Assembly (NCBI RefSeq): GCF_013315695.1
Contig: NZ_CP054353.1
Source of the DNA: Escherichia coli
GTDB taxonomy: Bacteria > Pseudomonadota > Gammaproteobacteria > Enterobacterales > Enterobacteriaceae
Length of the DNA stretch: 64,000 nucleotides
Strand: one strand, 5' to 3'
Below, one piece after another: positions 19,001 to 21,177 of this stretch (position 1 is its first letter; the number at the start of each line of letters is the position of its first letter). A model generated the notes under the pieces. It searched no databases. It was not told the origin of the DNA and was given only the letters and a program-made list of their open reading frames with translations. The position numbers were made by a program, and so were the translations under genes.

Positions 19001-19013
19001 TATGTGGTTGTAA

Positions 19014-19040
19014 CGTCGCATCTGGTCAGATGCGACGTTT
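19014..19040. terminator. hairpin terminator between convergent thiI and yajL
   Basis: perfect 10-bp stem cgtcgcatct / agatgcgacg with 4-nt loop followed by TTT. Confidence 0.6.
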
Positions 19041-19053
19041 GCCGCATCCGACA

Positions 19054-20518
<1,465 letters not shown>

Positions 20519-20560
20519 TGTTCCTCCTCACCCGCAACCACTCCGGGTGTTCAATAAGGC

Positions 20561-20608
20561 TATCCCTTAATTGTGCATGCTGTTGCGACTATGCACAATT
20601 AAGGGATA
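20561..20608. promoter_or_regulatory. 18-bp perfect inverted repeat (tatcccttaattgtgcat / atgcacaattaagggata, 12-nt spacer) in the divergent panE-yajQ intergenic region
   Basis: reverse complement of the left arm equals the right arm exactly. Confidence 0.5.
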
Positions 20609-20685
20609 CGTCCTGGTGCAGGACTGTTGGTTATTTAACTTTGCAGGTATTATGCTTCGCATCAAAAATGAAGGTAGAGGAAAAG

Positions 20686-21177
20686 ATGCCATCTTTCGAT
20701 ATTGTCTCTGAAGTTGATCTTCAGGAAGCACGTAACGCGGTCGATAACGCGAGCCGCGAAGTGGAGTCCCGTTTTGACTTCCGTAATGTTGAAGCCTCAT
20801 TTGAGCTGAACGACGCCAGCAAAACCATCAAAGTGTTGAGCGAGTCCGATTTCCAGGTCAATCAGTTGCTGGATATTCTGCGTGCCAAGCTGCTGAAGCG
20901 CGGCATTGAAGGCAGTTCACTGGATGTACCGGAAAATATCGTTCATAGCGGTAAAACCTGGTTTGTGGAAGCGAAACTGAAACAGGGCATTGAGAGCGCG
21001 ACCCAGAAGAAAATCGTCAAGATGATTAAAGACAGCAAACTGAAAGTGCAGGCGCAAATTCAGGGCGATGAGATCCGTGTAACGGGTAAATCTCGTGATG
21101 ATTTGCAGGCTGTCATGGCGATGGTACGTGGGGGCGATCTCGGTCAGCCGTTCCAGTTCAAAAACTTCCGCGATTAA
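20686..21177 (+). CDS. yajQ: nucleotide-binding protein YajQ
   Basis: 163-aa product starting [18 protein letters not shown]; ATG at 20686 inside the longer track ORF. Confidence 0.93.

Follow-up and report, generated by a model that had tools for sequence, protein, structure and literature searches.

A perfect palindrome between panE and yajQ of Escherichia coli, an RNase III hairpin that probably also carries mirror-image promoters

Between the divergent genes panE and yajQ of Escherichia coli lies a 48-bp palindrome which, with a probability that we put at roughly 0.6, is a single-copy, constrained element used at two levels, as a hairpin cleaved by RNase III in RNA and as a pair of mirror-image promoters in DNA. 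The inverted repeat is real and functional, and its identity as an RNase III target is already known, having been published in 2017. What we add here, from public data and sequence analysis, is a correction of the strand and of the transcription start sites (TSSs), the mirror-promoter reading and the insertion history of the element. Positions refer throughout to the window, the 64-kb stretch of E. coli DNA that was analysed.

Results and discussion

A long perfect palindrome in the panE-yajQ spacer

An earlier note on this DNA, made from the sequence alone, had described two 18-nt arms that are exact reverse complements 12 nt apart, placed 43 bp from the panE start and 78 bp from the yajQ start. 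On re-check the arms were 100% complementary and the coordinate differences agreed, with 42 and 77 nt lying between the repeat and the start codons (panE ATG at 20518-20516 on the minus strand, yajQ ATG at 20686); in window order, 20561-20608 reads TATCCCTTAATTGTGCAT-gctgttgcgact-ATGCACAATTAAGGGATA. The coordinates of all features are collected in Table 1. The repeat is the longest perfect inverted repeat of the window, the runners-up being 13-nt stems of the terminator type, and the view that it is unlikely to have arisen by chance was borne out by 30 simulated, composition-matched first-order Markov sequences, in which the longest perfect repeat with a loop of 3-40 nt measured 9-13 nt and never exceeded 13 nt. 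No second copy of an arm was found in the window with up to 3 mismatches allowed, where chance would be expected to give 0.07 matches. As RNA, the 48-mer has a folding energy of -26.9 kcal/mol (plus strand) or -26.3 kcal/mol (minus strand), and on either strand the stem comprises the 18 perfect pairs and 2 inner G-C pairs, a duplex that attains the roughly two helical turns (~20 bp) of an RNase III hairpin. The folding z-score of the spacer (172 nt) is -3.97.

Table 1. Features of the panE-yajQ spacer and its surroundings, in window coordinates
Feature	Position	Strand	Details
panE CDS (2-dehydropantoate 2-reductase)	19607-20518	minus	
Distal yajQ-sense / panE-antisense promoter	20407-20419	plus	-10 TACAAT 20407-12; TSS 20419 (443640)
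panE-side 48-mer	20513-20560		identical in 5287/5424 E. coli genomes, 97.5%
panE 5' UTR hairpin CACCCG-N9-CGGGTG	20529-20549	minus	immediately upstream of the Shine-Dalgarno sequence
Repeat 48-mer	20561-20608		identical in 5383/5424 E. coli genomes, 99.2%
Left palindrome arm TATCCCTTAATTGTGCAT	20561-20578		exact reverse complement of the right arm
Candidate panE promoter	20564-20598	minus	-35 TTGTGC (complement 20593-98), N17, -10 CACAAT (complement 20570-75); TSS 20564
Candidate secondary yajQ-sense promoter	20571-20606	plus	-35 TTGTGC 20571-76, N17, -10 CACAAT 20594-99; TSS A20606
RNase III-dependent RNA-seq position	20576 (NC_000913.3 444573)		in the left arm; PMC5371410 Table 1, Table S1
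12-nt loop GCTGTTGCGACT	20579-20590		belongs to the 17-nt promoter spacer on both strands
Right palindrome arm ATGCACAATTAAGGGATA	20591-20608		
yajQ-side 48-mer	20609-20656		identical in 3065/5424 E. coli genomes, 56.5%
Hairpin GTCCTG-gtg-CAGGAC with T-rich tail	20610-20634	plus	Escherichia-specific; called terminator-like; contains TGGTGCA
Main yajQ promoter	20643-20661	plus	-10 TATTAT 20648-53; TSS 20661 (443882, two datasets)
yajQ CDS (nucleotide-binding protein)	20686-21177	plus	

The hairpin is a published RNase III site

Window coordinates equal NC_000913.3 coordinates minus 423,997, the alignment to MG1655 being free of indels over 20500-20700. With this offset, the repeat coincides with a site that Gordon, Cameron and Pfleger (mBio 2017; PMC5371410) placed among the top RNase III-dependent positions, 444573 or "intergenic (panE-yajQ)", at which the rnc/WT read ratio was 48 and 32. 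Locus and hairpin are identical to those studied here, so the core finding is not new. The same authors found that purified RNase III cleaved RNAs of both senses, yajQ and panE, in vitro, placed multiple cuts by 5' RACE, remarked themselves that the hairpin is able to form on either strand, and reported a yajQ half-life of 6 min in the wild type and 3 min in the rnc mutant (PMC5371410). Altuvia et al. (2018) found in vivo cleavage for nine of the ten transcripts that Gordon et al. had seen cleaved; the main text of that paper names neither panE nor yajQ.

Gordon et al. treat the hairpin as a 5'-UTR element of yajQ, and the natural 5' ends, the promoter content and the evolutionary origin of the sequence lie outside their account. 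Because their RNA-seq "did not contain stranded information" (PMC5371410), the strand of the signal at 20576 is not given, and their T7 templates, which ran from 20380 to 21117 (yajQ sense) and from 20731 to 19967 (panE sense), were artificial run-offs spanning the repeat. The 5'-UTR label thus rests on unstranded RNA-seq and artificial templates, and for the principal mRNAs it is contradicted by the start-site maps.

Only one mapped start gives an RNA with the whole hairpin

For start-site tables in U00096.2 coordinates, the window position equals the coordinate minus 423,221. Cappable-seq (Ettwiller 2016) gives plus-strand TSSs at 20419 (score 35.9), 20606 (43.2), 20661 (63.7) and 20681 (2.3). 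In the TAP-based dRNA-seq of Romero et al. 2014 (PMC4681348), FWD-443882 (20661) is a class I start flagged as present in RegulonDB, while FWD-443827 (20606) and RVS-443785 (20564) belong to class II, that is, they are enriched for TAP-sensitive triphosphate ends and show no visible coverage step. TSS 20606 is therefore called by two independent 5'-triphosphate methods, TSS 20419 is seen in Cappable-seq only, and the minus-strand TSS 20564 comes from the dataset of Romero et al. alone, in which it is the sole minus-strand TSS upstream of panE and in which no panE-sense TSS is mapped upstream of the hairpin. No start at the panE-yajQ locus is listed in the ROSE and Shigella M90T TSS supplements. 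The block GCrGGTATTATGC (20643-20655), within the main yajQ promoter, is invariant in 15 of 15 aligned spacers, which represent about 12 genera; with CATAAT in its reverse complement it could conceivably initiate leftward as well, and no such TSS is listed.

Since the main panE and yajQ mRNAs start inside or downstream of the repeat, the hairpin is missing from them. Folding agrees: RNAs that begin at 20564, 20606 or 20661 cannot form it, and the plus-strand RNA from 20419 is the only one with a mapped start that holds the whole hairpin and keeps it in its fold. The suggestion in the earlier note of a stable leader hairpin accordingly survives in part, in that the hairpin is real and is cut by RNase III on both strands in vitro, and fails in part, in that the main mRNAs of panE and yajQ do not contain it. 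Given that the RNase III signal is unstranded, we can only infer that in vivo it belongs to the 20419 RNA. The published effect on yajQ half-life could be indirect, because most yajQ mRNA starts at 20661 and lacks the hairpin. The 20419 RNA would overlap the first 146 nt of the panE mRNA, ribosome-binding site included, and then continue through the palindrome into yajQ; with respect to panE this resembles an excludon-like arrangement, which could itself form RNase III substrates.

In the classical RNase III leader hairpins of rnc, pnp and T7 R1.1, cleavage alters the stability of the downstream mRNA. The panE-yajQ hairpin resembles them as a long, near-perfect duplex upstream of a coding region. 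It differs in being a perfect DNA palindrome, both strands of which encode a substrate, and in that transcription of both flanking genes starts mainly within or past the repeat.

Candidate mirror-image promoters in the arms

Upstream of the plus-strand start at 20606 the palindrome reads TTGTGC-N17-CACAAT, which scores 6.63 bits on a rough sigma-70 weight matrix and so falls at the 98.8th percentile of window positions; the same matrix gives 7.34 bits for the main yajQ promoter and 6.26 bits for that of TSS 20419. Because the palindrome is perfect, the same TTGTGC-N17-CACAAT promoter must also be present on the minus strand, with a start predicted at 20563. This position was forecast from symmetry before the minus-strand entry of Romero et al. 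was looked up, and the published TSS, 20564, is 1 nt off. The two starts lie in the outer ends of the arms, divergent, nearly mirror-symmetric and 42 bp apart, with -10 to TSS distances of 7 nt and 6 nt and a spacer of 17 bp, which lie within the 6-8 nt and 16-18 bp asked of a sigma-70 promoter, and the panE 5' UTR that begins at 20564 is 46 nt long. Since the heptamer ATTGTGC/GCACAAT serves as the -35 element on one strand and as the -10 element on the other, the palindrome would constitute an interdigitated, mirror-image pair of sigma-70 promoters. From the published TSS maps together with the sequence we infer that the arms act as such promoters for panE and for a secondary yajQ mRNA. The hexamers are weak (they agree with the consensus at 7 of 12 positions), and a standard, stricter consensus scan left the promoters in the palindrome uncalled; the TSSs inside it may be weak or background starts.

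These observations also bear on a rival explanation, in which the element is an RNase III hairpin only, where a long leader of yajQ (and/or panE) is processed, and the TSSs in the arms are weak, incidental and without a role. Cleavage is the sole activity that has been shown experimentally, and the internal TSSs are of class II. Watson-Crick perfection on two strands would be expected if the hairpins of both strands are substrates, and the G·U pattern of the Citrobacter relatives described below is one of RNA-level selection. We nevertheless consider this explanation rather unlikely, though plausible should the internal starts be background. TSS 20564 is the only E. coli start mapped upstream of panE and Escherichia has lost the presumed ancestral -10 box (see below), for which reasons panE needs a promoter in the palindrome; a mapped panE-sense TSS upstream of the hairpin is absent; the start at 20606, found by both 5'-triphosphate methods, has a read score of 43 compared with 64 for the main start; and the mirror symmetry of the starts was forecast in advance. 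A promoter model alone is likewise incomplete, as it leaves the pairing of all 18 arm positions unexplained: a promoter needs its hexamers only. The combined use of the element as RNA hairpin and as promoter pair is the reading that we prefer.

Symmetric bidirectional promoters have been described by Warman, Grainger and colleagues (PMC12825309; bioRxiv 10.1101/2020.01.31.928960), where symmetry allows RNA polymerase to bind in either orientation, yielding divergent transcripts and competition for the DNA. In that class a single -10 element is shared and the TSSs are ~18 bp apart (also 10 or 23 bp), whereas the TSSs of the palindrome are 42 bp apart and there are separate -10 elements, each of which overlaps the -35 element of the opposite promoter. 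Distance and separate -10 elements rule out a promoter of the shared -10 type. A similar competition between the two orientations should apply.

The element is nearly invariant in Escherichia

The panE-yajQ spacer was found in 5424 of 5426 complete E. coli genomes, and the identity of the repeat and of the two flanking 48-mers across them is given in Table 1. E. coli and E. albertii agree at all 90 positions of 20519-20608, arms and loop included, and differ at 6 of the next 77, while third codon positions differ by 16-27%. These comparisons indicate very strong purifying selection on the element within Escherichia. Each E. coli genome holds a single copy, the two places reported per genome being its two strands, and no relatives occur in true plasmids or phages, since the five plasmid matches were megabase records, that is, mislabelled chromosomes. 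In the clinical urine isolate E. coli 13TMH22 an IS1203 element of the IS3 family (NZ_CP019256.1, 1246-2459) sits in the left arm at about 20567-20570 of the window, which amounts to a natural knock-out allele of the palindrome.

REP/BIME, ERIC and MITE sequences are likewise small palindromic intergenic inserts with empty sites in relatives. They are dispersed and multicopy, whereas the palindrome is single-copy in every genome examined and has no family members; with one locus per genome, and none elsewhere in the window, in plasmids or in phages, membership in such a repeat family was rejected. To our knowledge its sequence is also unrelated to the REP and ERIC consensus. That the palindrome is no more than the remnant, without function, of a small insertion (MITE- or REP-like, or a templated quasi-palindrome), and that its transcripts are cleavable by happenstance, seems very improbable to us. 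In favour of this view are the restriction to one lineage with clear empty sites in close relatives, and the one clinical strain that tolerates the IS1203 copy in the left arm. Against it speak the absence of related copies from plasmids, phages and the rest of the E. coli genomes, a 48-mer without a single substitution between E. coli and E. albertii in the face of 16-27% difference at synonymous sites, and an invariance of 99.2% within E. coli beside a highly polymorphic neighbouring spacer.

Empty sites point to an insertion in the panE leader

The earlier note had named a lack of conservation in related genomes among the things that would count against it. This is half the case: most genera of Enterobacteriaceae lack the element, yet inside Escherichia it is under very strong purifying selection. 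Among 80 species representatives that bear yajQ, E. albertii alone carries the element. The divergent panE-yajQ order is conserved across Enterobacterales with spacers of ~125 bp, and empty sites are seen in Citrobacter amalonaticus/farmeri (113 bp), Salmonella (125 bp), Enterobacter and others; when Escherichia species other than E. albertii were sought through the PanE cluster, E. coli alone came up, and of two further variants one had an empty-site spacer while the contig of the other was too short for use. In panE sense the empty site reads ...GCGCTATACT-ATGTTAGCAA-ACACCTGG..., and its 10 nt are replaced by 71 nt in the C. freundii complex and by 64 nt in Escherichia. The insert is flanked on one side by a conserved TATACT/TATAAT box and on the other by the small conserved hairpin that adjoins the ribosome-binding site, and no target-site duplication is evident when empty and filled sites are compared. 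Because the box is 41-42 nt from the ATG in the empty-site species, we take it as the probable ancestral panE -10 element; in Escherichia the TATACT box is replaced by GTCCTGCACCAGGAC. On this comparison the element would be a lineage-specific palindromic insertion of ~60 nt that entered the panE leader directly after the ancestral -10.

In Citrobacter the stem, represented by eight distinct sequences, is longer (25 columns) and imperfect, with 88.7% of cells paired as against 31-52% when partners are slid. One stem pair is changed on both sides between Escherichia and Citrobacter, G-C to A-U or the reverse. The arms drift asymmetrically, a G·U pair in one strand corresponding to C·A in the opposite strand in 9 columns: of the cells that are not Watson-Crick, 37 form G·U pairs in the panE-sense RNA and 2 in the yajQ-sense RNA (9 columns versus 1). 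The folds accordingly reach -27 to -35 kcal/mol in panE sense compared with -14 to -22 kcal/mol in yajQ sense, the panE-sense structure being 7-13 kcal/mol stabler. This pattern points to RNA-level selection on the panE-sense strand in Citrobacter. In the C. freundii complex the hairpin follows directly on the conserved -10 box, which should place it at the extreme 5' end of the panE mRNA as a 5'-terminal stem-loop. The ompA leader is a 5'-terminal stabilising stem-loop, and the C. freundii hairpin may be likened to this type; the E. coli stem-loop differs in lying outside the panE mRNA, because the panE TSS lies within its 3' arm. The sole contiguous run of stem positions that is invariant across Escherichia and Citrobacter is ATTGT/ACAAT, the core of the hexamers, and 18 of 18 Watson-Crick pairs, as found in Escherichia, are what selection on both strands, or on the DNA itself, should produce.

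The spacers of Kluyvera (L009) and of a metagenome-assembled genome (MAG; L012) contain unrelated extra segments of ~45-55 nt at other positions. The extra leader sequence of Kluyvera does not form a hairpin comparable to the palindrome; the panE-yajQ spacer has gained inserts repeatedly in different lineages.

Operators, terminators and other classes

The earlier note had also considered a regulator-binding site. The binding evidence for this option consists of one NtrC gSELEX peak, obtained in vitro at low resolution and with 41% intensity, that is centred at ~20625, ~20 bp to the right of the repeat (PMC8743547), and it gives no direct support. Of the NtrC consensus only a half-site is present, a perfect TGGTGCA at 20614-20620, and as it lies outside the repeat an NtrC site within the repeat was ruled out. 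A sigma-54 promoter read as TGGTGC...TGTTGG was discarded by eye, its spacing being off by 2 nt. We know of no established operator motif that the palindrome matches. An ancient conserved operator is rejected because at least 70 Enterobacterales spacers are without the element, and in the relatives that do carry it half-sites are not kept as DNA, the Citrobacter arms diverging asymmetrically.

A dimeric or tetrameric regulator that bound the dyad would co-regulate panE and yajQ much as BirA does its targets. The operator bioO, of 40 bp, overlaps the divergent bioA and bioBFCD promoters, and BirA acts there. The palindrome shares with bioO a dyad of 40-48 bp that spans both divergent promoters next to a gene of vitamin biosynthesis; it differs in that bioO is an imperfect palindrome with a known repressor, whereas the panE-yajQ palindrome is perfect and no binding protein is indicated. 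A perfect dyad across both mapped promoters, sequence conservation that includes the loop and so exceeds the needs of pairing, and the NtrC peak in the spacer would all suit an operator. We still judge it improbable, as no known motif was recognised and the NtrC half-site is outside the repeat, perfect arms of 18 bp far exceed typical half-sites, and the strand-asymmetric, G·U-tolerant drift in Citrobacter is incompatible with a DNA-binding site. A literature search for a panE regulator returned none and was uninformative, the gene name being confounded with 'panel'.

If the palindrome served as an intrinsic terminator or attenuator of RNAs that run into the spacer, the strong hairpin would fit, as would the small G+C-rich stem with its T-rich tail that follows at 20610-20634. 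This we regard as hardly credible: the 18-bp stem is A+T-rich, with 7 G-C pairs, and no T run follows 20608, so that a Rho-independent terminator was excluded, and the single call of the terminator scan was the neighbouring 6-bp stem, not the repeat. Scanning with the Rfam 15 covariance models gave chance-level matches only (E-values 3 and 7.4).

A dual-use model

In the model that we favour, any read-through transcript folds into the 18-20 bp hairpin and is cut by RNase III, as the published work has shown, the likeliest carrier in vivo being the yajQ-sense RNA that starts at 20419 within panE and is antisense to the panE 5' end. Cleavage would split the antisense segment from the yajQ mRNA and leave a new 5' end just before the GTCCTG/CAGGAC hairpin, a placement that would explain the reported two-fold stabilisation of yajQ mRNA. 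At the DNA level, the palindrome would fire leftward at 20564 to give the panE mRNA and rightward at 20606 to give the secondary yajQ mRNA. As to its history, a palindromic unit of ~60 nt would have entered just downstream of the ancestral panE -10 box; the C. freundii complex would have retained it as a panE-sense RNA stem-loop downstream of the old -10, while in Escherichia the old box would have been lost and the promoter inside the palindrome have taken over. A demand on two strands and at two levels would explain why Escherichia keeps 18 of 18 Watson-Crick pairs where Citrobacter shows G·U drift. In its most specific form, with symmetric promoters that have replaced the ancestral panE promoter and an RNase III switch that uncouples the anti-panE RNA from the yajQ mRNA, the model is possible and is put forward tentatively. 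A dyad-binding protein or supercoiling-driven extrusion of a cruciform may add a further layer of control.

If the mirror-promoter reading is true, the locus would be a natural example of a small palindromic insertion captured as a promoter after decay of a -10 box, with a bidirectional geometry unlike that of the shared -10 class and with one sequence selected at once as DNA and as RNA, on both strands. The experimental system is an easy one, the element being only 48 bp long and natural empty-site and IS-disrupted alleles being at hand. As panE provides the pantoate needed to make coenzyme A, the locus is of real and probably modest physiological importance.

Other features of the locus

The Escherichia-specific GTCCTG/CAGGAC hairpin is 4 nt away from where the 20606 transcript starts and occupies the position of the presumed ancestral panE -10 element (GCGCTATACT in other genera). 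On the other side of the palindrome, the hairpin at 20529-20549 reads CACCTG/CAGGTG across Enterobacteriaceae, with a compensatory change from T-A to C-G in Escherichia and G·U variants elsewhere, and could be a conserved structure of the panE leader. Between the convergent genes thiI and yajL, at 19012-19039, there is a further perfect inverted repeat of 13 nt with a 2-nt loop, AACGTCGCATCTG / CAGATGCGACGTT, which probably terminates transcription in both directions. On the minus strand panE and yajL share 38 nt (19607-19644), the 3' end of the former running into the annotated 5' end of the latter, which fits the panE-yajL operon listed in PMC8743547.
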